Source: Candidatus Krumholzibacteriia bacterium
GTDB taxonomy: Bacteria > Krumholzibacteriota > Krumholzibacteriia > Krumholzibacteriales > Krumholzibacteriaceae
DNA length: 64,000 nucleotides
Direction: 5' to 3'
Assembly (NCBI GenBank): GCA_963836185.1
Contig: CAWIIQ010000001.1
Span: forward strand, 1,049,424-1,113,423
Shown here piece after piece: positions 39,466-56,426 of this stretch (position 1 is the first letter of the stretch; every line of letters starts with the position of its first letter). Position numbers and translations under genes: made by a program. The notes under the pieces are model-generated. The model ran no database searches and was not told the DNA's origin. It saw nothing but the letters and a program-made list of their open reading frames with translations.

Positions 39466-41734
39466 ATGTCTTCGGCTCGTCTCGAACCACGGATTTCCAA
39501 CAACGCTCTCAGAGTGCTCGAGAGAAGGTATCTGCGCAAGGACGTTAACGGAAATCTGACAGAGACGCCGGAAGAACTCTTCCAGCGGGTCGCGGCGAAT
39601 ATCGCCTCGGCCGAGAGGCGTTACGGTGACAACAAGAACCGCCTGGGCTGGGAAGATACGTTCTATAACATGATGGCCACCCTCGATTTTCTGCCCAATT
39701 CGCCGACCCTGATGAACGCCGGCGCCGAGCTCCAGCAGCTCTCCGCCTGCTTCGTCCTTCCGATCGAGGACTCGATGGAGAGCATCTTCGAGACGATCAA
39801 GAACACGGCGCTGATCCACAAGAGCGGAGGAGGCACGGGATTCTCCTTCTCGCGCATCCGCCCGAGGAACGACCGGGTCAAGACGACCAAGGGCATCTCG
39901 AGCGGGCCGATCTCGTTCATGACGGTCTTCGACGCCGCCACCGAAACGGTAAAGCAGGGCGGCACGCGCAGGGGCGCCAACATGGCGATCCTTCGCGTCG
40001 ACCATCCCGACATCCTCGATTTCATCACGGCGAAGAAGGACAACAGAAAACTCAACAACTTCAACATCTCGGTCGCCATCACCGAGGAATTCATGGAGGC
40101 GGTCAAGGCTGACCGCGACTATGAGCTGATCAATCCGCACGGCGGCGATGTCGTCGACAAGATATCAGCGAAGAAGGTCTACCAGATGATCGTCGAGCTC
40201 GCGTGGAAGAACGGCGAGCCGGGGATCGTTTTCATAGACAGGCTCAACGAGGATAATCCGACGCCCAACGCGGGGATGATAGAGAGCACGAATCCCTGCG
40301 GGGAGCAGCCGCTTCTTCCATACGAGTCGTGCAATCTCGGTTCGATAAACCTGTCGCACATGGTCACGGAAGACGGGCGACAAGTCGAAGATCGATTTCA
40401 ACAAGCTCGGCGAGACGGTGCGCAGGGCGACGCGGTTTCTCGACAACGTGATCGACGTGAACCGCTACCCGCTCAGCCAGATCAAGGATCAGACACTTGC
40501 CAACCGCAAGATCGGCCTCGGCGTCATGGGATTCGCCGACGCTCTCGTCAGGATGGAGATCCCCTACGACTCGGAGGAGGCCCTCGAGGTCGCCGAAGAG
40601 ATCATGGGATTCATCCAGCGCGAGTCGACCGCGACGAGCCTGGAGCTGGCCGAAGAAAGGGGAGCCTTCCCCAACTTCAAGGGCAGCAGGTTCGATACTG
40701 AGGATGCGCCGAAGCGCCGCAACGCGACGACGACGACGATCGCTCCGACCGGCACGCTGAGCATCATCGCCGGGTGCTCGAGCGGTGTCGAGCCTCTCTT
40801 CGCTGTAGCCTTCATCAGGCATGTCATGGACAACGATGAGCTCGTCGAGGTAAACCCGGTCTTCGAGGAGATCGCCCGCCGCGAGGGATTCTTCAGCGAA
40901 GAGCTGATGAAGAAGATCGCCGAGGAGGGGACCGTTCAGGGGATAGAGGAGATACCCGAGCATTGGCGGCGTATCTTCGTTACCGCGCATGATATCACGC
41001 CCGAGTGGCACATCCGGATCCAGGCAGCCTTCCAGAAATACACCGATAATGCCGTATCCAAGACGGTGAACTTTCCGAAGTCCGCCACTAAGGAAGACGT
41101 CGAATCAGTGTACATCAAGGCGTACGAGATGGGCTGCAAGGGCGTGACAATATACCGTGACGGAAGCCGTCAGGAGCAGGTCCTCAACATAGGCTCTGTC
41201 AACCGCGAGACCGAAGACGGCGAACTCGAGCTGGGCGATGATCTGGGCGGACTGCTCAAGCCGAGGCCGCGTCCCGAGGTGACGACCGGCAAGACCCACA
41301 AGATGACGACGGGCTGCGGAAACCTCTACGTGACGATCAACGAGGACGAGCACGGCCCGTTCGAGGTCTTCACGCAGATGGGCAAGGCGGGCGGATGCTC
41401 CGCCTCGCAGTCGGAGGCGATCAGCCGGCTGATATCTCTTTCGCTGCGCGCCGGAATCGATCCGAAGCAGATCGTCAAGCAGCTCCGCGGGATCAGGTGC
41501 CCCAACCCGGGATGGGAGAAGGGCGGCATGATCCTCTCGTGCAGCGACGCGATCGCCAGGGCGATCGAGCGGTACTTCCTCGAGGAGAAGACCCCGGTCG
41601 GCCACAAGGTCACCAAGATGTCGGCGGGATACCTCGACAAGGTCGCCGGCTTCTGCCCCGACTGCGGCGGCGTGATGGAGCACGAGGGAGGCTGCGCGGT
41701 CTGCCGCGAATGCGGCTTCTCCAAGTGCGGCTAA
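39466..41734 (+). CDS. nrdJ: class II (adenosylcobalamin-dependent) ribonucleoside-diphosphate reductase; apparent single-base frameshift near 40375
   Basis: N-terminal ATP-cone-less RNR core with [10 protein letters not shown] active-site Cys and C-terminal Cys pairs. Table ORFs 39466 and 40418 rejoin if one G is removed from gacgggcgac. Confidence 0.8.
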
Positions 41735-41779
41735 AGGAATTCCATGCATGAAAAACAGGAATTGTAGGGGTCATTCATA

Positions 41780-42317
41780 ATGGCCCCCGTCCCCGTCGTC
41801 CTTGTCGCCTGCGCTCACGAGGAGCTCGGCCGAAACCTCCTGACGATAGCATGGACGCGGAATCGACTGCTCCGATCCCGCGACCGTCCATGTCTCGATA
41901 AGGCCCGAAAGACACTCCTACAGGATGATCTCCGAATCAGGATGTTTCACCGTGAACATTCCGACACTCGATATGACTGAGACAGTCGACCTGTGCGGAG
42001 TGATATCGGGCAGGGATGTCGCTGATACTGAGGGAGACAAATTCGACAGGGCAGGCCTGACAGCCCTTCCCGCAAAGATCATAAAGGCCCCCCTCGTCGC
42101 CGAGTGCCCGGTAAACCTCGAGTGCGAGGTAAAGAATGTAATCCCCGTCGGCGTCCACCACATGTTCATAGGCGAGGTAGTCGCAAAGCACGCCGACAGC
42201 GAGGTCCTCACCGACGGCAAACTCGATTTCTCGAAGATCCCCCTTGTAACGTACGTTAACGGCGAGTACTGGTCCCTCGGAAAGCCAGTCGGAACTTACG
42301 GTTTCTCGAAAAAGTAA
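41780..42317 (+). CDS. flavin reductase-like FMN-binding split-barrel protein; apparent frameshift near 41930
   Basis: N-terminal VVLVACAHEE...TIAWT (ORF 41780) and C-terminal GCFTVNIPT...HMFIGEVV (ORF 41925) together make a typical flavin reductase domain. Confidence 0.55.
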
Positions 42318-42355
42318 TGACAGGAGGAAGGACAGGCGATAAAATATAGAAAATA

Positions 42356-43366
42356 ATGCTCCGGTTGCCATGGGTGGGGAAAGGAAGTGACGACGTGGGC
42401 AATCTAAGGGAAGCTATGCGCCGGGAGCTGCGGCTCCGCAACTACAGTCCGGGCACGATCAGGACATATCTTCAGCACATGACAGAATTCACCAGGCACT
42501 TCGGCCGAAGTCCGTCCGAACTCGGCAGGGAAGAGATAAACTCCTACCTGCTCCACATGACGGAAGTAAGAAAGGTCTCCGCCACATACAGGGACCAGGC
42601 CATAAGCGCGCTGAAATTCTTCTACGGAAGGGTGCTGAAGAAACAGCTCATCATCGAAGAACTCCCACGTCCGAAGAAAGAATTCAAACTGCCGTCAGTG
42701 CTGAGCACAAAAGAAGTAGCTCGGCTCTTCCAGGCAGTCAGAAACCGGAAGCATCTCACCATCCTGATGCTCCTCTATTCCGGTGGTATGAGAGTAAGCG
42801 AAGTAGTCAGGCTCAAACCTGAGGACATCGATCCAGAAAGACACCTTATCAGGGTGCGAGGGGGAAAGGGACGGAAGGACAGGTACACAGTCCTCTCGGA
42901 TACGGCTCTCGATGTCCTCCGTGATTATTACCTGTCATGGAAGCCGGAATATTTTCTTTTTGAGGGAAACAGGAAAGGTTCTCATCTGTCGACAAGATCG
43001 GTCCAGAACGTCGTTTCAGCGGCCAGAAAGCGTGCCGGGCTGAAGAAGAAGTTCAGCACCCATGTTCTCAGGCACAGCTTCGCGACGCACCTCCTTGAAA
43101 GCGGCACCGATTTAAGGTATATTCAAGAACTACTGGGGCACAAAAGTGCCAGGACGACACAGATCTACACACATGTAACACGGAGGGATATCGCACGGAT
43201 CGTTAGCCCGCTGGACAGGATGATGGAGGGGGAAGCAGCGGCGACAGGACCGATCGGAACATCCGAACGGAAGAAATCTCCCACCCACCCCACCCATTTT
43301 ACTGAACGTCCTCGTCGCAAACGAACCAAAAACCGTCAAAACAACGAACCGGACACACACAAATAA
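42356..43366 (+). CDS. integron-type (IntI-related) tyrosine recombinase, co-oriented with the cassette array
   Basis: N-terminal SAM-like domain very similar in pattern to IntI (YSPGTIRTY..., ALKFFYG). Catalytic R...HxxR...Y present (VLRHSFATHLL, IYTHV). C-terminal SPLD. The IntI-specific insertion appears absent by eye. Identification rests mainly on the attC array starting about 460 bp downstream. Confidence 0.7.
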   Translation: MLRLPWVGKGSDDVGNLREAMRRELRLRNYSPGTIRTYLQHMTEFTRHFGRSPSELGREEINSYLLHMTEVRKVSATYRDQAISALKFFYGRVLKKQLIIEELPRPKKEFKLPSVLSTKEVARLFQAVRNRKHLTILMLLYSGGMRVSEVVRLKPEDIDPERHLIRVRGGKGRKDRYTVLSDTALDVLRDYYLSWKPEYFLFEGNRKGSHLSTRSVQNVVSAARKRAGLKKKFSTHVLRHSFATHLLESGTDLRYIQELLGHKSARTTQIYTHVTRRDIARIVSPLDRMMEGEAAATGPIGTSERKKSPTHPTHFTERPRRKRTKNRQNNEPDTHK

Positions 43367-43393
43367 ACTGTTATATGATAGCCGAGAGAGGCT

Positions 43394-43807
43394 ATGAGAA
43401 AGAAATACCGTAAACTTTTCACGATACTATTAGTATCAGCGTTATTGGCTTCTTGTGAAGCCAACGATATTGGAAAGTGCACACATATCCCTGTCGAAGG
43501 AGTCGCAACAATTGTCACAGTCTGAAGAGCGTTCTGAATACCAGGATTGTGGTATGGGGGTTTTATTATACATCGACCTGGCTCCCGATTGTCCAATTTA
43601 CGCTGAAAGATTTCAATACAAAATACTCGACTTCTGACTTTGTACCCCAAAAGATGGGTCGAAGCCGTTGGCTTGATAGAAGGATCTCAGCATAGGTGTA
43701 TTTACTTTGCTAAGGGTGGTCCTTGTCCTAACTATATCGTTTGGGAAGATATAGACGTACAAAGCATTGAAGATTCATGTACTGTGTGGGCTGCGGAATC
43801 ACCATGA
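43394..43807 (+). pseudogene. first cassette gene: lipoprotein of the 'DSCxVWE' family, carrying two compensating frameshifts
   Basis: ATG 43394 after gagagagg. MRKKYRKLFTILLVSALLASCEANDIGKCTHIPVEGVATIVTV (frame 2), then ...IDLAPDCPIYAERFQYKIL (frame 0, ORF 43455), then ...YPKRWVEAVGLIEGSQHRC...IEDSCTVWAAESP* (frame 2). This is collinear with the paralogs at 55813..56269 and 59517..59939. Confidence 0.5.
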
Positions 43808-43831
43808 TTGGGTTATGGGAGCTCGGCCATC

Positions 43832-43972
43832 ATATAACAGCAGTGTTCGCGGCTGCAGGCCTTCGGCCTTTCGCTCAGATGGCCTTTGTCACGGCGGCCG
43901 CAGGGCGACTGCCGCGCCAACCGGGCCTGGCGGCCCGGACGGCCACCTCGCGAACACGACCAATGTTATGTG
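43832..43972 (+). repeat. attC site 1 (type A, ~141 bp)
   Basis: catATAACAGcagtgttcgcgg...ctcgcgaacacgaccaatGTTATGt. Inverted cores with extrahelical bases. Confidence 0.8.
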
Positions 43973-43997
43973 ACATGACATTGAGATAGGAGGGGTA

Positions 43998-44593
43998 ATG
44001 AAAAGGCTATCTGCGGTCATATTCTTACTATTGCTGATGACGTCCGCTAGCGTACTTGCTGACTCGGTACAATTTACCATACGAGTTCATCGAGACGTTG
44101 AGGATATCTCTGCGCTAGAGGTGAAAACCTTTGAGATCATTTCGGGGGGACTATTCCCAGAAACTGAACTAGAAACAGAGATGAAGGAGAAGATTCGAGC
44201 ACGGATCGAGTCTACTGGATTAGTCTATGATCCTTCAAAGAAGGACCTCTTTGTTGGTGTTATCTTTGTTGGCTTCTCCGAGCATGGGAACAAGCTACCT
44301 GGATTGGAAGATTGGCCAAGTCAAACCCATGGATCTGTTGATTCAGCTTATGCGCTTCTAACTGCAGAATCTGAGAATACAGAAGGGCAAGGTGCATGGA
44401 GGTCCATCCAAATCCACATTCTTGCACCACCTATCAGGAAGTTCCGGTTCGGATCTGGACGGGCTCGGTTACATACGATGGATTAGAGACCGATACTGAT
44501 AAACTGGCAAATGTGATGTTGGAACAATTACTTCTTGAATATCCCGTGCCATCTGGAAAGCCAGAGTTGCGAGAAGTGATATTAAGTGAATAG
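43998..44593 (+). CDS. cassette 1: secreted hypothetical protein, frameshifted (ORFs 43998..44486 and 44396..44593)
   Basis: Signal peptide MKRLSAVIFLLLLMTSASVLA. Two overlapping frames both look protein-like. Confidence 0.4.
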
Positions 44594-44610
44594 TGGAGGG
44601 GTGTCACGTC

Positions 44611-44752
44611 ACATAACAGAGTGTTCGCGGCTGCAGGCCTTCGGCCTTTCGCATAGATGGCCTTTGTCACGGCGGCCGCAGAAGCGCCCGCCGCGCCAAC
44701 CGGGCCTGAGGGCCCGGACGGCCACCTCGCGAACACGACCAATGTTATTCGC
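44611..44752 (+). repeat. attC site 2 (type A)
   Basis: Near-identical to site 1. Ends GTTATTC. Confidence 0.8.
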
Positions 44753-44777
44753 CACCTAACCTTGCAAAGGAGATAAT

Positions 44778-44945
44778 GTGGATGTATTGAAAATGTTGCT
44801 TCCTTTCGGGATTGCCTTTTTAGTGTTCTTAGCTATAAGGGAAGTAATGTGCTGGTACTTCAGAATTAACAATATGCTCAATATGCTCAATAGTATTGAT
44901 ACCAGTTTAAAAAGAATGTCGGGAAGGACAGACAGTTCTTCTTAA
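44778..44945 (+). CDS. cassette 2: small (55 aa) hydrophobic protein
   Basis: Not in table (<60 aa). VDVLKMLLPFGIAFLVFLAIREVMCWYFRINNMLNMLNSIDTSLKRMSGRTDSSS. GTG or internal ATG start. Confidence 0.3.
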   Translation: MDVLKMLLPFGIAFLVFLAIREVMCWYFRINNMLNMLNSIDTSLKRMSGRTDSSS

Positions 44946-44976
44946 GACAATACAATTGATTTTACGGTTAGGCGGC

Positions 44977-45117
44977 GTATAACAGTGTGTTCGCGGCTGC
45001 AGGCCTTCGGCCTTTCGCTAAGATGGCCTTTGTCACGGCGGCCGCTAGAGCGCCCGCCGCGCCAACCGGGCCTGGCGGCCCGGACGGCCACCTCGCGAAC
45101 ACGACCAATGTTATCTG
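44977..45117 (+). repeat. attC site 3 (type A)
   Basis: gtATAACAGtgtgttcgcgg ... caatGTTATCt. Confidence 0.8.
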
Positions 45118-45194
45118 AAACCACACCTTATCGTGGTATAATTCAGCGTTGCGTGGATTCTGGCCACAAGACACTGTGCCCCAAGGATGATGAG

Positions 45195-47132
45195 ATGAAG
45201 AGCAAGAACCTCACAAGAGTACTGATCGCCTGCCTATTTATCATGATCTCTAACGAAATATCTGCTCAATGGTATGACTTGGGGAATCCTGTGTTCATTG
45301 ACCCGGGGATGTTTCAGGACACACACATTTCTTACGATGGCAATGGAGGCCTGTTCTTTACGTGGTGCGATTGGAGAAACGGGGGAGCCCCTTATCAGGC
45401 GGATGTCTATGCACAATATGTGAATGCTGACGGAATAGCACAATTCGGACTGTCGGGGATGCCAATCGATACGATCAGCGGCAATCAGTACAAGGCTAAT
45501 GTTTCATATGTGGGAGGGGATTGCGCGGTGATTGTATGGTCGGACCTGATGGATGGATATAAATTGCGAGCTCAGCGCATTAATTCCGAAGGAATGGTAT
45601 TCTGGGGAGACAGAGGTGTGGATGTATCAGAACAGTCAGGAATGGGAGAAGTCGCATCAGTGATTCCAGATATTAATGGAGGAGCCATAATATCCTGGAG
45701 AAATTTTTATGTTTGGATTCAACGGCTGGATTCACTGGGCAATCGGATGTGGGGGGAGGACGGAATAAGAATTAACAATATTGGGGACACTGTTGGCAGT
45801 GCTCCTGCAATTGTGAGTGATGGGGCGGGAGGCGCAATAATCGTATGGTCAGACTATCGCTCTGGGAGCATGACGCATGACATATATGCTCAACGTGTTA
45901 ACTCAAACGGGGATGAGTTATGGACAGACGGGGGATTGCCGATTAACAACAATGAAGGAGCTCAAACTCAACCCTCAATAGTGTTTGACGGAAATAACTC
46001 CTTTATCAGTTGGTTTAACAATACATGGGACATCGGTGTTCAGAAAATAGATCACGATGGTAATCTCTTATGGAATGTTAATGGAGTATATATTAGTCCA
46101 ATAGAGCCCAGACCTAAGTATCGAGCCATGGCTGCCGATAATCATGGAGGTGTGATTGCCGCTTGGGAAGATTTTAGGAATACGAGTTCAACTGAATCTG
46201 ATATTTACGCTCAGCGGATTCGCTCAGATGGGGAGATTGCATGGGATATAGATGGTATTGCGATTTACATTGGTGGAGGGGATCATCAACAGCCAGCAAT
46301 TTCTACCACATCATCAGGCGATGCTATCATTGTTTGGACTAATTATTATGGAATTTACGCACAACGAGTGGATACCAGCGGAGCAATATATTGGCCAGAA
46401 TACGGTGAAAACATTTCAAGAGGGCCAGGGTGCCAACACTGGCCACTTATCCAGAACATCGATGACAAAGAATTATTCGTTGTGTGGAATAAGAATGAGA
46501 ATGATGCATGTTATGGAAACGACGATTTATATGTTCAAAAGATTGATCTTGAAGGACACATTGTAGGCACATTTCTAGATCAGGCCGAATGGTATTGTGT
46601 CTCTGATGAAATATGTTTGAAATGGTCGATTGTCTTATCCGCAAATAATCTTGAATTCATTATACTGCGCACATTAAGCGGAGAGCATAAGTACAGAGAA
46701 GTTGGCCGGATTATTGGATTCGAACGTCAATCCGAATTTTGCTATATTGATAGCACATGTAAACTTGGGGAAAAGTACATATATCGTGTTATCGCTTCCA
46801 TGGAAGATGATGAGATGTTGCTTTTTGAAACTACAACAATCCTGATGCCAAATCTAAAGTATGTTCTTCATCAGAATTATCCGAATCCGTTCAATCCAAT
46901 AACCAAAATCTCATACAGTCTGCCAAAACAGTGCATCGTCAGCTTAAAGATATACGATATTATGGGAAAAGAGATTGTATGCCTTGTTAACAATCAATTG
47001 CAGCAAGGTGAACAGGTAATACATTGGGATGGTAAAAACCACTTCGGAGATCTTGTTTCTTCCGGAACATATTTTTGCAAGCTTTTTGCTGGAAAACAGA
47101 CAAAAGTAATTAAATTGATATGTCTGAGATGA
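45195..47132 (+). CDS. cassette 3: secreted repeat (beta-propeller-like) protein with T9SS C-terminal sorting domain
   Basis: Signal peptide MKSKNLTRVLIACLFIMISNEISAQ. About 8 repeats of ...GGAIIxWxD...IYAQRxNxxG.... C-terminal QNYPNPFNPITKISYSLP...IHWDGKNHFGDLVSSGTYFCKL = T9SS CTD. The table ORF start at 44985 lies inside attC 3 and is rejected. Confidence 0.7.
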   Translation: MKSKNLTRVLIACLFIMISNEISAQWYDLGNPVFIDPGMFQDTHISYDGNGGLFFTWCDWRNGGAPYQADVYAQYVNADGIAQFGLSGMPIDTISGNQYKANVSYVGGDCAVIVWSDLMDGYKLRAQRINSEGMVFWGDRGVDVSEQSGMGEVASVIPDINGGAIISWRNFYVWIQRLDSLGNRMWGEDGIRINNIGDTVGSAPAIVSDGAGGAIIVWSDYRSGSMTHDIYAQRVNSNGDELWTDGGLPINNNEGAQTQPSIVFDGNNSFISWFNNTWDIGVQKIDHDGNLLWNVNGVYISPIEPRPKYRAMAADNHGGVIAAWEDFRNTSSTESDIYAQRIRSDGEIAWDIDGIAIYIGGGDHQQPAISTTSSGDAIIVWTNYYGIYAQRVDTSGAIYWPEYGENISRGPGCQHWPLIQNIDDKELFVVWNKNENDACYGNDDLYVQKIDLEGHIVGTFLDQAEWYCVSDEICLKWSIVLSANNLEFIILRTLSGEHKYREVGRIIGFERQSEFCYIDSTCKLGEKYIYRVIASMEDDEMLLFETTTILMPNLKYVLHQNYPNPFNPITKISYSLPKQCIVSLKIYDIMGKEIVCLVNNQLQQGEQVIHWDGKNHFGDLVSSGTYFCKLFAGKQTKVIKLICLR

Positions 47133-47179
47133 TTATATACTCAATTTGAGCACTATACTTATAAGTCAGGTGTGGCTTC

Positions 47180-47321
47180 AGATAACAGAGTGTTCGCGGC
47201 TACAGGCCTTCGGCCCTTCGCTCAGATGGCCTTTGTCACGGCGGCCGCTAGAGCGCCCGCCGCGCCAACCGGGCCTGGCGGCCCGGACGGCCACCTCGCG
47301 AACACGACCAATGTTATCCGA
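47180..47321 (+). repeat. attC site 4 (type A)
   Basis: gATAACAGagtgttcgcgg ... caatGTTATCCg. Confidence 0.8.
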
Positions 47322-47539
47322 CATCTTATTGAAGCTTAAAGAGGTGAAATTGCTATGAAAATGATGAAGCCAATTGTTGTTCTGATAGTACTGATACTCC
47401 TGTTCTCGGTCGCAAAGTATGTCAGAGTTCAAGCATTTCATATTAGAAAGTGAGAGCAAGGTTGAGCTTCCTAATTATTTTTATGATGACCTAGAGCCAT
47501 ACGTTACAACAATAGATCGCCAGCATTCTGACAAAGAGG

Positions 47540-47986
47540 ATGATTCGCCTTGCTGAATCTGTTTATCCACCAAGAAGGAAGATGCTTGAGAAGCATCCAG
47601 GTTTGCCAGAAGAAATGGTAGCAGATTCACTGTGGGTGGCTGAAGAGCACGGCGATTTAAAAATACCCTACACACTAACTGCGAGTGCAGTTCGGTACTA
47701 TATTGATCTGATGAAGAGGTACGAAAAGAAGGACGAAACGCTCGATAGTATCCCGAAAAATGCAAAGTTAACATATAAAGCAGACATGCACGGTCCATCA
47801 ACTTTCATTATTAATGGTGAATTGTATGAAAATGTTAAGGTTGTAACCCTTGAGTTAAGCTGGTCCACCTATACTAATGCTTTGAATGCTGGAGGATTCA
47901 GTATTGTCAAGTTTGTGATTTTCGACAGGGAGAAGAATATTCTGGGTGTGTTTGGGGATGGATTCCCTGGAGAATGGGCGTCATGA
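47540..47986 (+). CDS. cassette 4: hypothetical protein (148 aa)
   Basis: Table ORF. No recognised domain. A 32-aa hydrophobic mini-ORF (47355..47453) precedes it. Confidence 0.45.
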   Translation: MIRLAESVYPPRRKMLEKHPGLPEEMVADSLWVAEEHGDLKIPYTLTASAVRYYIDLMKRYEKKDETLDSIPKNAKLTYKADMHGPSTFIINGELYENVKVVTLELSWSTYTNALNAGGFSIVKFVIFDREKNILGVFGDGFPGEWAS

Positions 47987-48014
47987 ACATTGGGAATATC
48001 CAATAGAAGACGTC

Positions 48015-48155
48015 GGATAACAGAGTGTTCGCGGCTGCAGGCCTTCGGCCTTCGCTCAGATGGCCTTTGTCACGGCGGCCGCTGGAGCGCCCGCCGCGCC
48101 AACCGGGCCTGGCGGCCCGGACGGCCACCTCGCGAACACGACCAATGTTATTCGC
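48015..48155 (+). repeat. attC site 5 (type A)
   Basis: ggATAACAGagtgttcgcgg ... caatGTTATTCg. Confidence 0.8.
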
Positions 48156-48559
48156 CATGTGGCAGATGAATAAATTTAACTTCGATTTCTTCTTATTTTT
48201 TAGGACTCTTCTTTCCCCGCAGTACAGCCCCATCCAGCCTCAGGGTGACTTCCGGAGTCTCTAAAGCCTGATCGATCCAGTACCTCATATTTTCTCCGAT
48301 GTTAAGGCCTAGACTCGTGCCGTAACGGGCCTGAGGGTGGCTTGCGGCTGAGACTGAGATCCTCGATCCTGAGGTTTTAAGGGGCCGAGATTGGTAGGGG
48401 AGAGCTCGTAAGGAACTTGCTTTCAACGATCGGGGCAATTCAGCGTACGACTTCGGGTCGCGCTGTCGCATCTTTATCAGCCAAGGGTTGGCTGAAAGAC
48501 TATTGAACCGGAGAGATTAAAGGATTAGATTTATAGGTGAGGGGTGATCTAGTATGAAT
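48156..48559 (+). other. cassette 5: ORF-less conserved element, copy 1 (candidate structured RNA / mobile 5' leader)
   Basis: About 404 bp between attC 5 and attC 6. Shares long conserved blocks with 51800..52215. Ends in SD-like aggtgagggg + ATG reading into attC 6. Confidence 0.5.
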
Positions 48560-48675
48560 TCCACACGGCGTATAACAGAGGTGTTCGCGGCTGCGCATGT
48601 CACCCGGCCTGCAGAGCACGCCGGGCGCCAATGCTTCGCGTACACCGCCTGCGGCGGCGTCGCGAACACTCACAA
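48560..48675 (+). repeat. attC site 6 (type B variant, ~116 bp)
   Basis: Same R''/L'' (tATAACAGaggtgttcgcgg) and L'/R' (cgcgaacactcacaatGTTATAC) but a different central region. Confidence 0.75.
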
Positions 48676-48740
48676 TGTTATACGATAAATGCCCTTATTC
48701 CTTTGACATATTCAATTCTACATAGATAGAATCTCCATAC

Positions 48741-51639
48741 ATGTTAGGGGAAACAATCTCACATTATGAAATTCTCGAGAAGCTCGGCGAGGGCGGGATG
48801 GGCGTAGTCTACCGCGCCCGTGACACGAAGCTCGACCGCGAGGTGGCTATCAAGCTCCTGCCCCCGCACCTGAGCTCCGATCCCGAGGCGGTAAAGAGGT
48901 TCGTCCATGAGGCGAAGACCGCCTCGGCCCTGAACCACTCCGCTATAGGCGTCATCCACGAGATAGACGAGACGGATGACGGCCAGACGTTCATCGCAAT
49001 GGCCCTCTACGAGGGGGGACTCTCAGGGAGAAGCATCGACAGCGGCAGCATGACATCTAGGCGAAGCAGTAACCATAGCCTCCCAGATAGCCTCGGGTCT
49101 CGACCAGGGCCCACGAGAAGGGGATAGTCCACAGGGACATCAAGCCGCAGAACATACTTCTGACCAGAGACGGCGAGGCGAAGATAATCGACTTCGGCCT
49201 AGCGAAGCTCGCCGGAAGGACGAAGCTGACGAGGGACGGGAGTACGCTCGGCACTGCCGCCTACATGTCCCCCGAGCAGGCGAGGGGAGAAGAGGTCGAT
49301 CACCGTTCGGACATCTTCTCTCTCGGGACGATCCTGTACGAGATGCTCGCCGGTGAGCCACCATTCAAGGGGGAGCACGAGGCGGCGTTGCTCTACGGGA
49401 TAGTGCACGAGGAGCATGAAGAGATATCGGAGAAGTGCGGGGGCATAGCACCGGAATTGTGCAATGTGGTCGGAAAGACGCTGAAGAAGGAAAAGGAAGC
49501 AAGGTATCAGAACGCGGCGGACCTGAAAGCTGAATTGAAGAGGTCGAGCACCGGCAGTGTCGATGAGGGCGGACCGAGGGATACGAAGGACGCTGGAAGA
49601 GGTAAAGGGTTCTGGATAGGCATTGCGGCGGTCACCGTGACACTCACAACTGCCGTACTTCTCGTAATGACCGGACGTGAGCCGGCGCCGCTTACCGCTT
49701 CGGAGATGACTCTCGCTGTGGTTGATTTTAATGACCTAGCAACAGAACCGGATCCTATAAAATCCAAGACGATTACAGAGCTGCTAAATACCTCCCTGGG
49801 AGATTTCTGTCCGATACGCGTTCAGAGCCCGGAACGAGTAAGGGAATGTCGAAGACAGCTTTTCGGTTCAACTGAAGCGCAGATAGAGGAAGGGCAGGAA
49901 CTGGAGATCGCGCGCAGGAGCGAAGCGACCTATTTGCTTACTGGCAGCATCAGTGTCGTTGGCAACGACGGTTTTATCTCTTGGAGGCTCATAGATGTAC
50001 TAAGTGGGACTATCATCAAGGCCGGAACAGTCGAACCAGGTGAGATGATGGCAGTAGTTGATAAGATCGTGGAGGTCGTATTGCCGGAGATCGCAGAAGC
50101 TTCGGGAGTTGAGCAGACTGCAGAGCAGGTTTCCGTGGCACAATCTCGACATCTTCACAGCAGGCGTTTGAGCATTACGTTAGGGGTAAGATAAATCATG
50201 ACAGCGATCGTCCAGTCGAAGCACTCGATGAATACACGAAAGCTGTCGGATTAGATTCCAGTTTTGCTCTTGCCTGGTTTGCTATGTCTAGACTCTACTA
50301 TGGTGCCATGATGATTAGGTATGATCCGGCACTTTATAATAAATACAATGAGCTTGCCTTAAGGTATGAATCCAGGATGGGCACCAAGGAGAGGATGCAG
50401 CTTCGTGCTATTAATCTTGGAGGAGTCAAAACGATAGAAAAACTCAAGGAAATCCTCGAGCTCTGGCCTGATGACCGCGAGACGCTGCAGATGCTCGTCC
50501 TCAGAACCCACTATAATTGGATGCAAAAAGAATGTATCGAGTACTCTCGAATCGGATTGACGCTATACCCGGAAGACCAGGTTTTCGGAGGAAGTATCTA
50601 TATCACATCTCTTAATAATTTGGGTCTAAGCCAAGAAGCGATGAAGGCGTCCAGAGAATTTATCAGAAAATATCCTGACGATTCGGCAGCTTGGCGTTCT
50701 CTTGCCGAGACATTTGTGGTCATGGGGCAACCGGACAGTGCCGAGGCGATCTGCAGAATAATTTTGGAGAAATATCCTGAAGGCAGCCAGAATGCAGAGG
50801 CAAGGCGGATGATAGCACGATGTGCATATCTTGCAGGCGATCTAGATGAATCGATTTCAAGGTATGATAGATTATTGTCAGACGCGAACCTGGATGAATC
50901 TACTCGTCAGGAGATTCTTTCTAACTATACTCACATTATAGATCTTACTTATGTATATCGAGAAGCTGGCCGCTACTACGACGCCTTGCGGACCTTGAAT
51001 GAGGCAAGACCGTACTTCGGCAACCGACCTGATCGCTGGGAATTACAAATGGGCTATCTGCTAGTAGATATTGGCAGGAACAAGAATGCGTTGAAACTCG
51101 CTGAAGAGATGCTTGCATCAGATAATATGCCAATGCAGAGGTATGCCAGACGATTCATGGGCAAGGCGCAAGTTAATAATGGTGATATCCAAGGTGCTCA
51201 GGAAACTGTATCGATACTGGATGGACTTGGCATAGTCAGGGGACCTATCTACAAGTACCATTCATTTTTCACTCAGGCATATATTGCATTGGCAAGGAAT
51301 GATGCTTCAGTGTCTCTAAAGCATCTTGATGATGCGGCCCAGATAGTGGGCTTCTCATACTGCATGTTCGGAATCGAGCTGAAGACATTGCAGGCGGAGG
51401 CGAACAGACTGGCAGGGGACCTGGAGGCGGCAGCCTCGATCCATGAAGAACTGCTGAGGATTCATGGCGGACATGCATTGTCACACTTCGAACTCGGTAA
51501 ACTGTATGAGGCAATGAGAAGAACGGACGAGGCAAAACTGCACTATAATAGATTCCTAGAGATGTGGAATAACGCTGATGATGGATTACCTCAACCTGCA
51601 CTCGCGAGGGAGAGACTGACAGCGCTTAAAGGTGTTTAA
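48741..51639 (+). pseudogene. cassette 6: degraded Ser/Thr protein kinase fused to a TPR domain (at least 3 frameshifts between 49010 and 49140)
   Basis: Kinase subdomains [27 protein letters not shown] and SPEQ are present but spread over three frames. The C-terminal TPR region (50284..51639) is intact in one frame and contiguous with the kinase region in sequence. Confidence 0.55.
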
Positions 51640-51658
51640 ATAGAGCAGGGCTTTCATC

Positions 51659-51799
51659 GCATAACAGTGTGTTCGCGGCTACAGGCCTTCGGCCCTTCGC
51701 TCAGATGGCCTTTGTCACGGCAGCCGCAGGGCGACTGCCGCGCCAACCGGGCCTTGAGGCCCGGACGGCCACCTCGCGAACACGACCAATGTTATCCGC
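51659..51799 (+). repeat. attC site 7 (type A)
   Basis: cATAACAGtgtgttcgcgg ... caatGTTATCCg. Confidence 0.8.
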
Positions 51800-52215
51800 T
51801 ATGTGGCAGCTGATTGAATTTATCTTCGATCTTTTCTTTTTATTGGGACCCTTCTTCCCGCCCATCCCAACCATTACCAGCCGGAGGTCGACTTCCGAGA
51901 GTCTCTAGAGCTAGTTCTGCAAGGTGACGAGTCCAACCCCTGTAAGAATAATGCCTCTATAGATGATCCGGCCTGAGGGTGGCTTGCGAGGCGCGACTGA
52001 GATCCTCGGGTCAAGAGGCTTTAAGGGCCGAAATAGGGGTAGGGGAGCGATCGTCAGGGACTTGCTATCATCGGTCTGAGGCAGGTTCATCTCTCGACTT
52101 CGGGAGGCGCAGTCGCAGTTCTATCAACGGGTCAACGCCGAAAGACTATTGAAAGTTCGAGATTAACGGTATAGATTTAGAGGTGAGGGGTGCCTATATA
52201 TGAATTCCACACAGC
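51800..52215 (+). other. cassette 7: ORF-less conserved element, copy 2
   Basis: Collinear with 48156..48559 (blocks ...atgtggcag..ttcgat..ttctt..., ggcctgagggtggcttgcg, gactgagatcctcg, cgacttcggg, aaagactattgaa, gagattaa.gg.atagattta.aggtgaggggtg...atgaattccacac). No conserved ORF on either strand. Confidence 0.5.
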
Positions 52216-52346
52216 GGATAACAGCAGTGTTCGCGGCTACGGGCCTTGAGGCCCTCGCTCAGATGGCCTTTACCGGCCTTTGGCGCGCCGGCCAACCGGG
52301 CCTGAGGCCCGACGACCAACTCGTTAACATGACCACTGTTATGGAG
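52216..52346 (+). repeat. attC site 8 (degenerate type A)
   Basis: ggATAACAGcagtgttcgcgg ... ctcgttaacatgaccactGTTATGG. L' arm mutated. ATG of the next gene lies inside R'. Confidence 0.65.
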
Positions 52347-52868
52347 GGACGTTTTAGAAAATGTAACATACGAATCATTCTGGTTGTTCTCGTCTTAACT
52401 TCAGCTCTTATATCCTGTGGAGAGGATAGCTGTGAGTGCCCTACACCTAATCCTATTGAATACACCAGCGTTGTGTTCTACTACAAAGATCATCCATATT
52501 GCTATTCAAGTACTGCTGGATTAGAGGTAGAGCTTTATGTCGGTGATGAACTCATAGGGTATTGGCATTATGGCTCTAATCCAGCAGATCCAAATCTAGA
52601 TTATCCTAATTCGCAACCTTTTCCGGTTGAGCTCGGAAGTGCCTTGAACCTTGAATTCAGGTATTGGGATAAATCAGGTCATGAGATGAGAGACACAGCA
52701 AATCTCATCATGGATGATGAAGATTGCACTTACGTCAGTTTCTTTGCCGACATAGAAAATCCCTGCCTGGGTGCTGAGTTATGTGATAGTTGTATTGTTT
52801 TTGAGATCGATGAAAACATGAAGTGTGAGGGTGCTGATTCAATCTATGTCGCTGTAGTGACTAATTGA
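52341..52868 (+). CDS. cassette 8: Cys-rich lipoprotein
   Basis: MEGRFRKCNIRIILVVLVLTSALISCGEDSCEC.... The ORF is also open upstream through attC 8 to the ATG at 52200 of the conserved element. Confidence 0.55.
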   Translation: MEGRFRKCNIRIILVVLVLTSALISCGEDSCECPTPNPIEYTSVVFYYKDHPYCYSSTAGLEVELYVGDELIGYWHYGSNPADPNLDYPNSQPFPVELGSALNLEFRYWDKSGHEMRDTANLIMDDEDCTYVSFFADIENPCLGAELCDSCIVFEIDENMKCEGADSIYVAVVTN

Positions 52869-52881
52869 TGGAGACAGCGGC

Positions 52882-53024
52882 ATATAACAGTGTGTTCGCG
52901 GCTACGGGCCTTGCGGCCCTTCGCTCAGATGGCCTTTGTCACGGCGGCCGCAGAAGCGCCCGCCGCGCCAACCGGGCCTGGCGGCCCGGACGGCCACCTC
53001 GCGAACACGACCAATGTTATCCGC
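52882..53024 (+). repeat. attC site 9 (type A)
   Basis: catATAACAGtgtgttcgcgg ... caatGTTATCCg. Confidence 0.8.
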
Positions 53025-53038
53025 AAGCGTATTATGAT

Positions 53039-53434
53039 ATGAACAAGTTCCCAGCAATATTTTTTTTGTCACTCCTTCTGGCTTCCTGCCGAGATCCTTT
53101 CGCGCATGAATGGGAAAACTTATATCAGCTCAGCGCAGATCAGATTATTCTACCCGATACTGCTCAAATATTTCAACCGATGCAGGTCAAAGTGCAGGTT
53201 ACTTTAGATACATCTAATCATAATTACAAAGACCAATATATCGAAACAACACCAGATGGCTATCTGATAGTGCTGATTGGTGTAATAGAAGATACGAGAT
53301 TTCCAGATAATGACCCGGATCCCAGAACAGAATGGCATTCTTTTAACCTTATCCCATTTAAGAAAGGAGAAGTAATCATTGAGGGGAAACGAGTCAATTC
53401 AGAGAATCTTATTGATTCAGTGTATGTTCAGTAG
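53039..53434 (+). CDS. cassette 9: lipoprotein, 'EWHxF' family member 1
   Basis: MNKFPAIFFLSLLLASCRDP... contains ...PDT...TEWHSFNLIP.... Paralogous to 54398..54760 and 54947..55336. Confidence 0.6.
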   Translation: MNKFPAIFFLSLLLASCRDPFAHEWENLYQLSADQIILPDTAQIFQPMQVKVQVTLDTSNHNYKDQYIETTPDGYLIVLIGVIEDTRFPDNDPDPRTEWHSFNLIPFKKGEVIIEGKRVNSENLIDSVYVQ

Positions 53435-53447
53435 TGGGCACGCCTGC

Positions 53448-53589
53448 GCATAACAGAGTGTTCGCGGCTACGGCCTTCGGCCTTTCGCTCAGATGGCCTT
53501 TGTCACGGCGGCCGCTGGAGCGCCCGCCGCGCCAACCGGACTTGGCGGCCCCGGACGGCCACCTCGAAAACACGACCAACGTTATACGA
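53448..53589 (+). repeat. attC site 10 (type A)
   Basis: gcATAACAGagtgttcgcgg ... ctcgaaaacacgaccaacGTTATAC. Confidence 0.8.
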
Positions 53590-53646
53590 AAGGCCGGGAA
53601 GCGATAAAAAAGAACCTTGACAGATATGCATATATGATGCATACTG

Positions 53647-54207
53647 ATGCATATGAGAACTACACTGAATATTGACGATGATCTGATTCGCAAGGCAGCG
53701 AAGATGACAGGGATCAGCGAGAAGACTTCCCTGGTACGCCTCGGGCTTGAAGCATTGATCGCTCTTGAGAGCGCGAGAAGGCTAGCAGCTCTTGGCGGCA
53801 CAGAGAAAGATCTTGGCCCTGATTCCTCGCAAACGAACGAGTTCGTGAGTATGATCCTGGCTGATACATCTGTATGGATCGATCATCTTCGCAATGGAAA
53901 CAAGCGGATGGCTCTTTTTCTGAACGAAGGTGTCGTTTTGTGTCATCCTTTCATACTCGGGGAATTGGCCTGTGGGAACCTCAAAAACAGAGCTAAAATA
54001 CTCGATATGCTTGCTTCCCTTCCGACAATGCCAGTTGCAGAGCACAGTGAAGTGCTTGATTTCATTTCCCGATACAAATTCCAAGGGAAGGGTATAGGGT
54101 GGATCGATGCCCATCTGTTGGCATCAACATTTCTGGCGAAAAGCCGAATCTGGACTCTCGACAAATCTTTACTAAAGATAGCAAAAGACCTGAAGGTCTC
54201 AATATAG
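53647..54207 (+). CDS. cassette 10: VapB-like antitoxin + PIN-domain VapC toxin in a single open frame
   Basis: N-terminal MRTTLNIDDDLIRKAAKMTGISEKTSLVRLGLEALIA (VapB/DUF2191-like). C-terminal MILADTSVWIDHL...GELACGN...IDAHLLA (PIN acidic residues). No stop between the two parts. Confidence 0.7.
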   Translation: MHMRTTLNIDDDLIRKAAKMTGISEKTSLVRLGLEALIALESARRLAALGGTEKDLGPDSSQTNEFVSMILADTSVWIDHLRNGNKRMALFLNEGVVLCHPFILGELACGNLKNRAKILDMLASLPTMPVAEHSEVLDFISRYKFQGKGIGWIDAHLLASTFLAKSRIWTLDKSLLKIAKDLKVSI

Positions 54208-54239
54208 GGCAATCAAAAGGTTTAGTAGCCGGCCACTTC

Positions 54240-54382
54240 GTATAACAGAGTGTTCGCGGCTGCGGGCCTTGCGGCCCTTCGCTCAGATGGCCTTTGTCAC
54301 GGCGGCCGCAGGAGCACCCGCCGCGCCAACCGGGCCTGGCGGCCCGGACGGCCACCTCGCGAACACGACCAATGTTATCCGA
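54240..54382 (+). repeat. attC site 11 (type A)
   Basis: gtATAACAGagtgttcgcgg ... caatGTTATCCg. Confidence 0.8.
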
Positions 54383-54397
54383 AAGCGCGGGATATGT

Positions 54398-54760
54398 ATG
54401 AATAAAAAAATCGCATTATCGATCCCATTACTTCTTGTAGTTGCATGTAATCTATTCAAGCCACCTGAAAAGATACAAACATGGGCTGATGTCGAACAGA
54501 TTGTTGTTCCTGATACTGTTGACTATTTCGAAGCTTTCGAGATCAGCGCTGAAATTTCAATGGACCATACATGTAAGTATGTAGGTCCTGTGCTGGAAGA
54601 AACTTCTGAGGGCTGCTCCATTACCATTATCGTTGAATCTGTGGAAGTGAGCTTTCATGAAAAGGATATTTCTGAGTGGCATACCTTTACTCTGAGACCT
54701 CTCGAATTGGGATCTTACATCATCAGGGTGAAAAGTAAGAATGTGGAAGATTCTTGTTGA
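54398..54760 (+). CDS. cassette 11: lipoprotein, 'EWHxF' family member 2
   Basis: MNKKIALSIPLLLVVACNLF... contains ...PDT...SEWHTFTLRP.... Confidence 0.6.
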   Translation: MNKKIALSIPLLLVVACNLFKPPEKIQTWADVEQIVVPDTVDYFEAFEISAEISMDHTCKYVGPVLEETSEGCSITIIVESVEVSFHEKDISEWHTFTLRPLELGSYIIRVKSKNVEDSC

Positions 54761-54789
54761 TTCAACTTACGTTCGTTAGATGCGCCATC

Positions 54790-54932
54790 GGATAACAGTG
54801 TGTTCGCGGCTACAGGCCTTGCGGCCTTTCGCTCAGATGGCCTTTGTCACGGCGGCCGCAGGAGCGCCCGCCGCGCCAACCGGGCCTGGGGGCCCGGACG
54901 GCCACCTCGCGAACACGACCAATGTTATGCGA
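54790..54932 (+). repeat. attC site 12 (type A)
   Basis: ggATAACAGtgtgttcgcgg ... caatGTTATGCg. Confidence 0.8.
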
Positions 54933-54946
54933 AGGCGAGGGGAACA

Positions 54947-55336
54947 ATGAAATTAGCGGTTGGAATAATTGCAATTATCGTTATTTGCTCTTCCTGCGAA
55001 GATCCACCAGTAAAAGTATGTGACCGACCAGTAATGTTGGAAGTAGAACAGTTGATGGCTCCGGATTCTTGCAGGTTAGGTGAGCAGGCACAATTACAAG
55101 TCGAAGTAATTCTTAACGGTTCAAGTTATAGTTATTTCGGCCCCGACATTAACGACACAGATTCGGGTTGTAGAATAAGGATTATGGGAGAAAAAGATGA
55201 ATGTGCACTTAACACTCCTTGCATTTGCTACGAGTGGCATTCGTTTGTTATTTCCCCCTCACAAACGGGAATATACATAATAGAGATAATTAATTCTCAA
55301 GCTGATGATTTAGCGGATACAATAACAGTGTATTAG
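54947..55336 (+). CDS. cassette 12: lipoprotein, 'EWHxF' family member 3
   Basis: MKLAVGIIAIIVICSSCEDP... contains ...YEWHSFVISP.... Confidence 0.6.
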   Translation: MKLAVGIIAIIVICSSCEDPPVKVCDRPVMLEVEQLMAPDSCRLGEQAQLQVEVILNGSSYSYFGPDINDTDSGCRIRIMGEKDECALNTPCICYEWHSFVISPSQTGIYIIEIINSQADDLADTITVY

Positions 55337-55346
55337 CTGTGCCATC

Positions 55347-55486
55347 GGATAACAGAGTGTTCGCGGCTGCAGGCCTTCGGCCTTTCGCTCAGATGGCCTT
55401 TGTCACGACAGCCGCAGGGCGACTGCCGCGCTAACCGGGCCTGGCGGCCCGGACGGCCACCTCGCGAACACGACCAATGTTATGTG
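55347..55486 (+). repeat. attC site 13 (type A)
   Basis: ggATAACAGagtgttcgcgg ... caatGTTATGTg. Confidence 0.8.
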
Positions 55487-55512
55487 CAATGCTGTGCATT
55501 AATTTAAAGGGG

Positions 55513-55677
55513 ATGAAGTTGAAGAAACTATCTCTGATCATCGGAATTCTCGCATTAGCCGTTGCAATAATCATCTTCATATATGCTTCTGGTGCTAGGC
55601 GAATTTATAGCGGCCTCTTATTTATATTGATAGCTATCATCCAATTCACTTTTGCTCTTCGAAAAGGTGATAAATGA
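55513..55677 (+). CDS. cassette 13: small two-TM membrane protein (54 aa)
   Basis: MKLKKLSLIIGILALAVAIIIFIYASGARRIYSGLLFILIAIIQFTFALRKGDK. Confidence 0.4.
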   Translation: MKLKKLSLIIGILALAVAIIIFIYASGARRIYSGLLFILIAIIQFTFALRKGDK

Positions 55678-55693
55678 TCAATAAGGGCACTGC

Positions 55694-55768
55694 ACATAAC
55701 AGAGTGTTCGCGGCTGCGGGCCTTGCGGCCCGGACGGCCATCTCGCGAACACGACCAACGTTATGCGA
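55694..55768 (+). repeat. attC site 14 (short variant, ~75 bp, central region deleted)
   Basis: acATAACAGagtgttcgcggctgcgggccttgcggcccggacggccatctcgcgaacacgaccaacGTTATGC. Confidence 0.7.
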
Positions 55769-55812
55769 AAAGCCGCAGACGTTAAAACCTACCCCTGGGA
55801 GGAGATGATGTG

Positions 55813-56269
55813 ATGTTGAAATCAGGAATGTTCATCATTGCCGCTGTTTTTTTTATTCTCGCTCCTTATTTCTTGTGAGGATGAAGAAGGCATCATTTGT
55901 GGGGGAGAGTGCCTTTATCATGAGATACCAGGCACAGCATCTATTATTTCTGTTACTGATATTGATGGATCTACCTATTGTGGAGATCCTGTCGAGGTGA
56001 TTTACAACTTTACTCCAGATGATCCAAGCGATATTGATCCAGACTATTTGACGATTTGGCCACTCGATAATATTTACTACAAGATAGGTCAAAACAATCC
56101 GCCACGAAGATGGGTTGAAACGCATGGACTTCTGGCAGGAACAGACCATCCATGTACAAGATTTAGGATTTACAAGGGATCTTGTGTGCCTGTTGGATAC
56201 AATTTTGATGGCATAGATGATTACAGTGTCTCTGATTCATGTGATGTATGGGAGCAAGAGATACCATAA
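55813..56269 (+). CDS. cassette 14: lipoprotein of the 'DSCxVWE' family; frameshift in a T8 homopolymer at ~55848
   Basis: ATG 55813 gives MLKSGMFIIAAVFF. After removing one T of the T8 run this continues ...LFSLLISCEDEEG... (lipobox). C-terminus ...DSCDVWEQEIP. Confidence 0.5.
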
Positions 56270-56293
56270 GTAAACTTGATTACTGCGACCACC

Positions 56294-56426
56294 GCATAAC
56301 AGAGGCATTTGCGTACTCGCCTGGCTTCGCCAGAACTAGGCTGTCACGGCCGTTGCAATTTGAGTGCATGATGATAGATAAATAGGGGATTGCGGCTGCG
56401 CCGCGAATGCTCACAATGTTATACGG
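56294..56426 (+). repeat. attC site 15 (type B-like variant, diverged arms)
   Basis: gcATAACAGaggcatttgcg ... cgcgaatgctcacaatGTTATAC. Shares the ...ctcacaatgttatac end with site 6. Confidence 0.65.

Follow-up and report, generated by a model that had tools for sequence, protein, structure and literature searches.

Two diverged copies of a gene-less integron cassette

The window analyzed here, a 64-kb stretch of bacterial DNA (contig CAWIIQ010000001.1), carries a chromosomal integron with at least 15 cassettes on the plus strand, separated by attC sites that are long, GC-rich, and mostly 105-135 nt in length. The intI gene and the cassettes share one direction, a 'reverse integron' layout known in Treponema, Chlorobium, and Blastopirellula (PMC6557892). 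The subject of this report is an element that occurs in this array as two collinear copies, each with a body (424 and 426 nt) devoid of an open reading frame (ORF). An nhmmer profile built from the pair recovered both copies from the window, at 48156-48570 (E 4e-135) and 51800-52216 (E 1.7e-137), and detected no third copy in it. The evidence supports the description of the element as a mobile, non-coding integron cassette. We tentatively favor the reading that it is a gene-less promoter or expression cassette equipped with its own translation start.

Mapping of attC sites and R boxes showed that both copies are bounded by attC sites (R''…R'), lie in the orientation of the array, and have their junctions between the G and the TT of the R' box. 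The initial annotation had recognized the attC boundaries correctly, while its numbering of the copies as cassettes 5 and 7 has to be revised: counted from attI, they are cassettes 6 and 8. Their features are as follows.

48148..48677, plus strand: copy 1, complete cassette 6 (530 bp), from the TT of the upstream R' box to the G of its own R' box, by attC and R-box mapping
48148..48162: left end TTATTCGCCATGTGG, the remainder of R' plus ~10 nt pairing with 48561-48577; a generic attC-stem extension
48163..48266, plus strand: 5' module of copy 1, pyrimidine-rich and unstructured (GC skew -0.25, AT skew -0.20), conserved in five sequences from four assemblies
48267..48326: variable linker of copy 1, ~33-43% identical between copies, with indels
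48327..48502, plus strand: G-rich 3' module of copy 1 (GC skew +0.32), with invariant GGCCTGAGGGTGGCTTGCG, GACTGAGATCCTCG, GGTAGGGGAG, and CGACTTCGGG
48503..48531, plus strand: putative promoter of copy 1, TTGAAC-17 nt-TAGATT, sigma-70-like and conserved in position
48535..48546, plus strand: block AGGTGAGGGGTG of copy 1, resembling a Shine-Dalgarno (SD) sequence; invariant
48554..48688, plus strand: ATG and 44-codon frame across the own attC of copy 1, 7 nt past the SD-like block
48572..48677, plus strand: own attC of copy 1 (~106 nt), of a different subtype from that of copy 2
51792..52338, plus strand: copy 2, complete cassette 8 (547 bp), by attC and R-box mapping
51807..51910, plus strand: pyrimidine-rich 5' module of copy 2, by alignment and composition
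51969..52148, plus strand: G-rich 3' module of copy 2, by alignment and composition
52149..52177, plus strand: putative promoter of copy 2, TTGAAA-17 nt-TAGATT, matching the consensus at 9 of 12 positions
52181..52192, plus strand: SD-like block AGGTGAGGGGTG of copy 2; invariant
52200..52868, plus strand: ATG of copy 2 and 222-aa ORF running in frame across attC into the lipoprotein of cassette 9
52218..52338, plus strand: own attC of copy 2 (~121 nt), by attC mapping

Between the copies, 70% of the ungapped columns are identical; for the cassette-specific body the figure is 66%, and both values lie below the 75-80% first estimated. Every collinear block quoted in the initial annotation is present in both copies (GGCCTGAGGGTGGCTTGCG, GACTGAGATCCTCG, CGACTTCGGG, GAAAGACTATTGAA, GAGATTAA, TAGATTTA, and AGGTGAGGGGTG). 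Ten runs of 8-19 nt are invariant, and identity between them is near random. The variance of identity in 20-nt windows is 10.5, compared to 4.3 ± 1.1 in permutations, a degree of mismatch clustering exceeded in none of 5000 permutations; the block pattern therefore goes beyond chance. Read from its 5' end, the element has a pyrimidine-rich 5' module of ~105 nt, ~60 nt of linker with scrambled sequence, a 3' module of ~175 nt that is rich in G, and a last ~60 nt in which conservation is dense. GC skew switches sign inside it, from -0.25 (48163-48266) to +0.32 (48327-48553) in copy 1 and from -0.23 (51807-51910) to +0.27 (51969-52199) in copy 2. As the own attC sites of the two copies belong to different subtypes, either the copies are old or their attC sites have been exchanged.

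Coding potential

The two copies share no ORF. Mismatch phases are flat in every ungapped block, with no three-base periodicity, and a Pfam search of ten frames returned nothing. Two protein collections, of 5.8 billion and 1.84 billion entries, yielded no credible homologue. Among the queries without homologues were the 92-aa ORF on the minus strand of copy 1 and the N-terminus of the attC read-through, represented by 48 residues of the 222-aa ORF of copy 2. Ten ORFs in and around the copies were also checked against called genes: only the 222-aa frame from 52200 is listed as such in the protein collection, and no ORF contained within either copy is. With neither frame homologues nor codon-position bias, the copies resemble neither a protein-coding gene nor a pseudogene, and a conserved protein hidden by frameshifts, which the initial annotation had raised as an alternative, was not found. 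Its statement that neither strand holds a conserved long ORF agrees with these results: copy 2 lacks any equivalent of the 92-aa ORF on the minus strand of copy 1. At 279 bp, this ORF is longer than permitted by the working rule of Blanco et al. for a gene-less cassette, namely no ORF >210 bp (PMC11014356).

The 222-aa gene call begins at the ATG of the element and reads across attC into a lipoprotein (MEGRFRKCNIRIILVVLVLTSALISC…). The lipoprotein likely has an ATG of its own (52341) inside the R' box, with neither an SD sequence nor a promoter of its own. As a lesson for annotation, the call at 52200 is probably a fusion or start-site artefact.

Recurrence in related integrons

The integron platforms of relatives were reached through homologues of IntI. 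Among eight other related integrase proteins looked up, the 5' end of the element was found for three, all 76-80% identical to the IntI of the window. It forms the first cassette, straight after the GTTAT of attI, in L017 (JGI 3300042086; nhmmer E 4e-9) and L019 (NCBI GCA_030613345.1; E 1e-10), and the third cassette in L011 (ENA ERZ25749332). The visible part is limited to the first 25-92 nt, which end with the contigs (at 12832 in L011, 11103 in L017, and 4979 in L019). Over this part, the element occurs independently in other integrons, including at attI, beside attC or attI, as expected of the mobile unit that had been proposed. In three independent assemblies, the short-read contigs stop at the passage from the conserved 5' module into the variable linker, suggesting that those populations too have several copies or variants of the element.

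Pairwise identity among the five 5' ends, drawn from four assemblies, is 64-91%; hence they represent a diverged family rather than a recent duplicate. Together with the blockwise conservation and the different own attC sites, this upholds the earlier view of an old duplication under constraint, with the qualification that the constraint is uneven. L019 and a further locus, L020, encode an identical integrase and differ in their first cassette (the element in one, a sequence starting CCGA in the other), from which recent cassette turnover at attI within one population can be deduced. The element is not in the arrays of L015 and L021 (10 kb each).

Searches beyond these loci gave no further members. 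No full-length homologue was reached via related integrons, which yielded three partial 5' ends only. In genome contigs, the pattern GAAAGACTATTGAAN{3,10}GAGATTAA gave two matches, both AT-rich chance similarities. In metagenome contigs, GGTGGCTTGCGN{3,9}GACTGAGAT gave eight matches whose likeness is confined to the pattern itself. Patterns made from internal anchors had no matches in viral contigs, and blastn against plasmids and phages returned no match.

A candidate promoter and a putative translation start

Candidate promoters were sought with a custom scan for -35/-10 pairs that score at least 7/12 in the same alignment columns of both copies. One positionally conserved sigma-70-like site was found on the plus strand (TTGAAM-17-TAGATT); no minus-strand promoter, antisense to intI and the upstream cassettes, is conserved in position in the two copies. 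Conservation is densest in the last ~60 nt of the cassette body, and four of the ten invariant blocks of at least 8 nt fall within 53 nt at the promoter region. After the putative promoter come the invariant AGGTGAGGGGTG, 7 nt of spacer that vary in sequence and not in length, and then ATGAATT. The copies differ at the sixth base of the -35 box, over the initial 5 nt between the two boxes, and within the 7 nt before the ATG, with all lengths kept; the varying positions are the ones that a unit of promoter, ribosome-binding site, and start codon tolerates. The SD-like block also resembles AGGAGGGGT, the sequence ahead of the ATG of cassette 2 that serves as its SD. Promoter-like sites are somewhat more numerous in the array than expected (32 vs 20.4 ± 5.1), several cassettes begin with one, and cassette 7 has an 11/12 match, all of which points to the use of such signals in this host.

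On the basis of these observations, the preferred interpretation, to which we assign a probability somewhat below one half, is that the element serves as a promoter cassette that contains no gene and brings its own start of translation. That ORF-less cassettes can bear promoters had been a passing remark of the initial annotation; it is now the reading that the evidence favors. The outward-facing unit would comprise a sigma-70-type promoter, TTGAA(C/A)-17-TAGATT, an SD-like GAGGGG(TG), and an ATG 7 nt further on. Transcription would start ~15-18 nt before the ATG, and the transcript would run across the own attC into the next cassette or cassettes. Ribosomes starting at the ATG would cross the attC hairpin and keep it open. 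We infer from the sequence that the promoter would fire in the host, that the ATG would be used, and that downstream cassettes would benefit. The blocks in the ~340 nt upstream may have a regulatory role as DNA, or they may form a pyrimidine-rich entry region that is not translated.

We place the element in the known class of gene-less (promoter) cassettes, as a new and conserved family. Promoter activity has been shown for most of 29 gene-less Vibrio cassettes (Blanco et al. 2024, PMC11014356). The size class of these cassettes is matched, with 530 and 547 bp and attC sites of 106 and 121 nt here compared to 491-666 bp and 101-127 nt in Vibrio (PMC11014356). Like the promoter cassettes of Vibrionaceae superintegrons, the copies are ~0.5 kb long, have an attC of ~100-130 nt, contain no conserved gene, and have a sense promoter, putative here, away from the 5' end; a role for the downstream cassettes of a long sedentary array is proposed in both cases. 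In contrast to those cassettes, activity here is predicted, the host belongs to a distant phylum with a reverse integron, the element forms a family across several assemblies with long invariant blocks, and its last parts are an SD-like block and an ATG from which a frame extends across attC.

The first ORF-less cassettes shown to have promoter activity were those of Treponema reverse integrons (Tansirichaiya et al. 2019, PMC6557892). There, too, the integrase is co-directional and an ORF-less cassette can stand first at attI, and the idea of a 'genetic clutch' may be carried over. Sequence similarity to those cassettes would not be expected. Unlike in Treponema, where ORF-less cassettes in first position are rare (1/42 and 1/5; PMC6557892), the element takes this position in 2/8 of the related integrases looked up here.

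The translational part of the unit has a precedent of another kind. ORF-11 in attI1 is a translation-initiation region that reads into the recombination site. The element resembles it in having a short ORF with its own SD before a structured recombination site, the hairpin of which translation would open. It differs in that the predicted unit lies on a mobile cassette and not on the attI platform. attC hairpins reportedly impede ribosomes (Jacquier et al. 2009, cited in PMC11014356 and PMC6557892), and translation across attC could relieve this block.

Several points weigh against the promoter reading. The promoter was recognized by consensus matching only: copy 1 matches at 8/12 positions, which is under the scan threshold, and copy 2 at 9/12, and by chance alone ~0.3-0.7 such sites are expected in 800 nt. 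In silico calls of such promoters are unreliable according to Blanco et al. (PMC11014356), the comparison comprises two full-length copies, and the sigma-70 consensus may not be that of the host. The predicted transcription start site puts the SD-like block at the extreme 5' end of the transcript. A plain promoter leaves unaccounted for both the conservation of blocks 150-400 nt upstream and that of the block GAGATTAA inside the -35/-10 spacer. Finally, cassette 7, downstream of copy 1, already has a strong promoter.

Should the promoter reading be true, promoter cassettes would exist outside Vibrio and Treponema, in an uncultured lineage of the Fibrobacteres-Chlorobi-Bacteroidetes (FCB) group with a reverse integron. 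It would also follow that promoter cassettes can form conserved, horizontally shared families, often first after attI, which bears on how long sedentary arrays are expressed. If the cassette supplies a ribosome start before attC, a translational layer would be added to the promoter-cassette idea.

Features shared with other cassettes of the array

Some signals of the element are generic properties of the attC sites. The cassette ends are complementary (TGTTATTCGCCATGTGG / CCACACGGCGTATAACA) over 17 nt, with 88% pairing in copy 1 (inverted repeat I1) and 94% in copy 2, and a co-change from C:G to T:A in this terminal repeat separates the two copies. The repeat (ATGTGG…CCACAC) corresponds to the R'/R'' pairing lengthened by ~10 nt, that is, to an extension of the attC stem. 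The extension is present in 13 of 15 cassettes, where 8-14 of 18 positions past GTTAT match, and position 11, counting the G of GTTAT as the first, is an A-versus-G mismatch in each of the 13. More generally, at almost all of the cassette starts from 43371 to 56418, the first ~10-13 nt are the reverse complement of the ~10-13 nt before the own R'' (for example, 43966-43980 vs 44598-44612). This means that, in the circular cassette, the ends flank attC and lengthen its stem beyond the R boxes. The first ~15 nt and last ~11 nt of the element (…CGCCATGTGG / CCACACGGCG…) are thus not specific to it.

The 44-aa ORF at 48554-48688, described as a peptide translated through attC, does exist. Reading through attC is not a trait of the element: 14 of 15 attC sites have no stop codon in the frame ATA|ACA|G. 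Because the GC richness of these sites keeps the frame open whichever cassette provides the ATG, translation through attC is generic. Annotators should accordingly regard terminal complementarity of the type ATG…/…CCACAC and open attC frames as generic, and not as a leader or the inverted repeat of a mobile element.

Integration of a different type of element was considered and rejected. A group IIC-attC intron, an insertion sequence (IS), or a miniature inverted-repeat transposable element does not fit the intact flanking attC sites, the canonical crossover, and a terminal repeat that belongs to the stem extension common to these attC sites. Mobile elements that target attC include group IIC-attC introns and IS1111-attC elements (PMC3001079). 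The element shares with them the presence of non-coding or atypical DNA at attC, and its minus strand begins with GTGTG after attC; unlike them, it is flanked by intact attC sites at the canonical crossover and abuts directly on attI. No intron domains were found in it by Rfam at E ≤ 10. Internal direct repeats, considered as possible iterons, were dismissed given that they are not conserved between the copies.

Alternative functions

The initial annotation had favored a structured RNA, such as an attenuator or riboswitch-like leader. In its broader form, this alternative holds that the cassette body is a functional non-coding RNA (ncRNA), either a trans-acting small RNA (sRNA) or a cis-acting leader, working through its sequence blocks or through a fold too subtle for a comparison of two sequences. 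Blockwise conservation at fixed spacing would suit such an RNA, and ORF-less cassettes encoding sRNAs are known (PMC6557892). One is sRNA-Xcc1, an sRNA of an ORF-less Xanthomonas integron cassette (cited in PMC6557892); it likewise represents a non-coding cassette with a conserved body, in contrast to which no transcript, upstream promoter of its own, terminator, or structure signal was found for the element.

Minimum free energy (MFE) z-scores were calculated for the 3' module against dinucleotide shuffles, and consensus-fold z-scores with RNAalifold against the column-shuffled alignment of the two copies. The MFE z-scores are near zero for both copies on the plus strand (+0.66, -0.06) and the minus strand (-0.86, +0.79), and the MFE folds are unlike between copies. 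The consensus-fold z-scores gave no support for a conserved fold either.

Cassette body: plus strand +1.58, minus strand -0.37
3' module: plus strand +1.90, minus strand +0.09
5' module: plus strand +0.38, minus strand -0.07

The whole cassette gave the sole signal (z -2.49, minus strand), which is gone once the terminal ~17 nt (the attC ends) are excluded. In a four-sequence alignment, the 5' module has no consensus structure (consensus energy -0.4 kcal/mol). In favor of a fold are short hairpins whose loops vary in length between the copies, CCUC…GAGG (6 vs 7 nt) and GACU…AGUC (5 vs 6 nt), a 12-bp A/U-rich long-range helix on the plus strand with two double changes, and a hairpin at 48477-48495. 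The latter persists in copy 2 on the minus strand alone, through G-U pairs and one C-G to G-C flip, so that the two candidate helices imply opposite strands; isolated helices of this kind are anecdotal at n = 2. The CCUC segment can pair with either of two GAGG segments, without covariation.

Signals expected around an RNA gene or a regulatory leader were sought as well. Upstream of the body, neither strand has a promoter conserved between the copies, and both copies lack an intrinsic terminator-like site. An expression platform, be it a terminator or an SD-sequestering or anti-terminator switch, was not recognized in the copies. The whole window has no Rfam match at the gathering threshold, and a search for tRNA and tmRNA genes gave none; at E ≤ 10, both copies and L019 gave nothing usable. 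RAGATH-30 (RF03055) was rejected as an A/T-rich chance similarity: its match on the minus strand at 48149-48202 (E 0.14) scores 21.4 bits against a gathering threshold of 59.5 and is restricted to copy 1, being absent from copy 2 and L019. Neither a conserved structure across the two full-length sequences nor a conserved leader peptide was thus found, and the proposal of an ncRNA is considered unlikely.

Less likely still is that the element serves as an insulator or a regulatory platform, instead of or besides a promoter. As an insulator, its C/U-rich, G-poor 5' module would load Rho and halt untranslated read-through from intI or upstream cassettes. This module is indeed pyrimidine-rich in both copies (with T>A in addition to the negative GC skew), unstructured, and conserved in five sequences, and it stands directly after attI in two relatives, where transcription from intI enters; the argument is wholly compositional. 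As a platform, the invariant blocks would bind a host regulator of the 3' promoter, in keeping with the conserved blocks upstream of and within the promoter spacer. Contrary to this version, no repeated operator-like motif is common to the copies: an internal 19-nt direct repeat found in copy 1 has not been retained in copy 2, and neither has a perfect 8-bp palindrome upstream of the -35 box of copy 1. There is also no regulator gene linked to the element.

Of lower likelihood again is a composite of these ideas, in which the element would be a hitherto undescribed, self-contained mobile 'insulate-and-restart' module, with a Rho-loading entry, a regulatory core, and an exit made of promoter, SD, and ATG, or in which the core would be a new class of cassette-borne regulatory RNA with a fold beyond the reach of a two-sequence comparison. 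The core would bind a host factor or act as an RNA, and the exit would restart transcription and lead ribosomes across the attC hairpin, unlocking the next cassette.

It is improbable that the element is the decaying remnant of a coding cassette, functionless and kept by hitch-hiking or weak selection. Some gene-less Vibrio cassettes are degenerated genes (PMC11014356), and one library match, P0122, was obtained for a 107-aa minus-strand frame of copy 1 (HMMER, 1.84 billion representatives; E 3.3e-5). It was rejected on inspection, as a single ungapped match of 53 aa, 34% identity, and 28 bits is counted five times in a repeat protein, and it covers the variable linker and is not common to copy 2. 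A decaying gene is further at odds with the flat codon phases of every block, with mismatch clustering far beyond chance, and with the persistence of the family in at least four assemblies at its observed divergence while the own attC sites diverged. Useless cassettes are, moreover, readily excised.

Very small proteins acting as leader or toxin peptides are highly improbable: both copies keep a Phe-rich ORF of 35 codons from ATGTGGCAG and an SD-ATG with conserved spacing at the 3' end, but the lengths of the former in the five sequences are 35, 35, 5, 5, and 22 codons (L017 and L011 read ATG…ATG ATT TAA, with the stop at codon 6, and L019 runs for 22 codons), its first ATG is part of the attC-stem extension, its frames differ over ~60 nt between the copies through compensating indels, and the 3' peptide is nearly all encoded by attC sites that are unlike between the copies, with the 48-residue query of copy 2 having no homologue. 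The mini-ORF of the initial annotation is therefore real in both window copies, while its role as a conserved leader or other functional peptide is largely refuted.

Integron and host context

The integrase gene lies upstream of the array.

42356-43366, plus strand: integron-type tyrosine recombinase IntI, with Pfam domains Phage_integrase and SAM_4

IntI scores 244.8 bits against NF040815 (NCBIfam), above the cut-off of 220, and 230.9 bits against TIGR02249, under the cut-off of 265. The attI crossover GTTAT is located 5 nt past the intI stop codon. The nearest public integrases are from metagenome-assembled genomes labelled Candidatus Krumholzibacteria/-ota, and a type IX secretion system (T9SS) sorting domain in one cassette protein fits a host of the FCB group; the host is probably Krumholzibacteriota-like.

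The genes for ribonucleotide reductase and flavin reductase precede intI in this order (window ~40418-42356). The same order is found upstream of intI in L011, L017, L018, L019, L021, and L025, the IntI proteins of which are 73-82% identical. Because this synteny is kept across relatives, the integron is regarded as sedentary and vertically inherited.

Cassette 7 (48678-51791), which separates the two copies, is unusually large at 3.1 kb. It encodes a Ser/Thr protein kinase that is divided between two ORFs, with the N-lobe at 48741-49127 and the C-lobe at 49265-50194, and a tetratricopeptide repeat (TPR) protein at 50284-51639. Its own near-consensus promoter, TTGACA-18-TAGAAT (48703-48732; 11/12 match), ends 8 nt ahead of the ATG, suggesting a leaderless or near-leaderless mRNA.

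The two shortest cassettes of the array, 44745-45110 (366 bp) and 55480-55760 (281 bp), are not ORF-less. They contain ORFs of 55 and 66 codons, respectively, each with an extended hydrophobic segment that hints at a membrane peptide. As both carry a small ORF, no ORF-less cassettes besides the two copies of the element were noted among the first 15.

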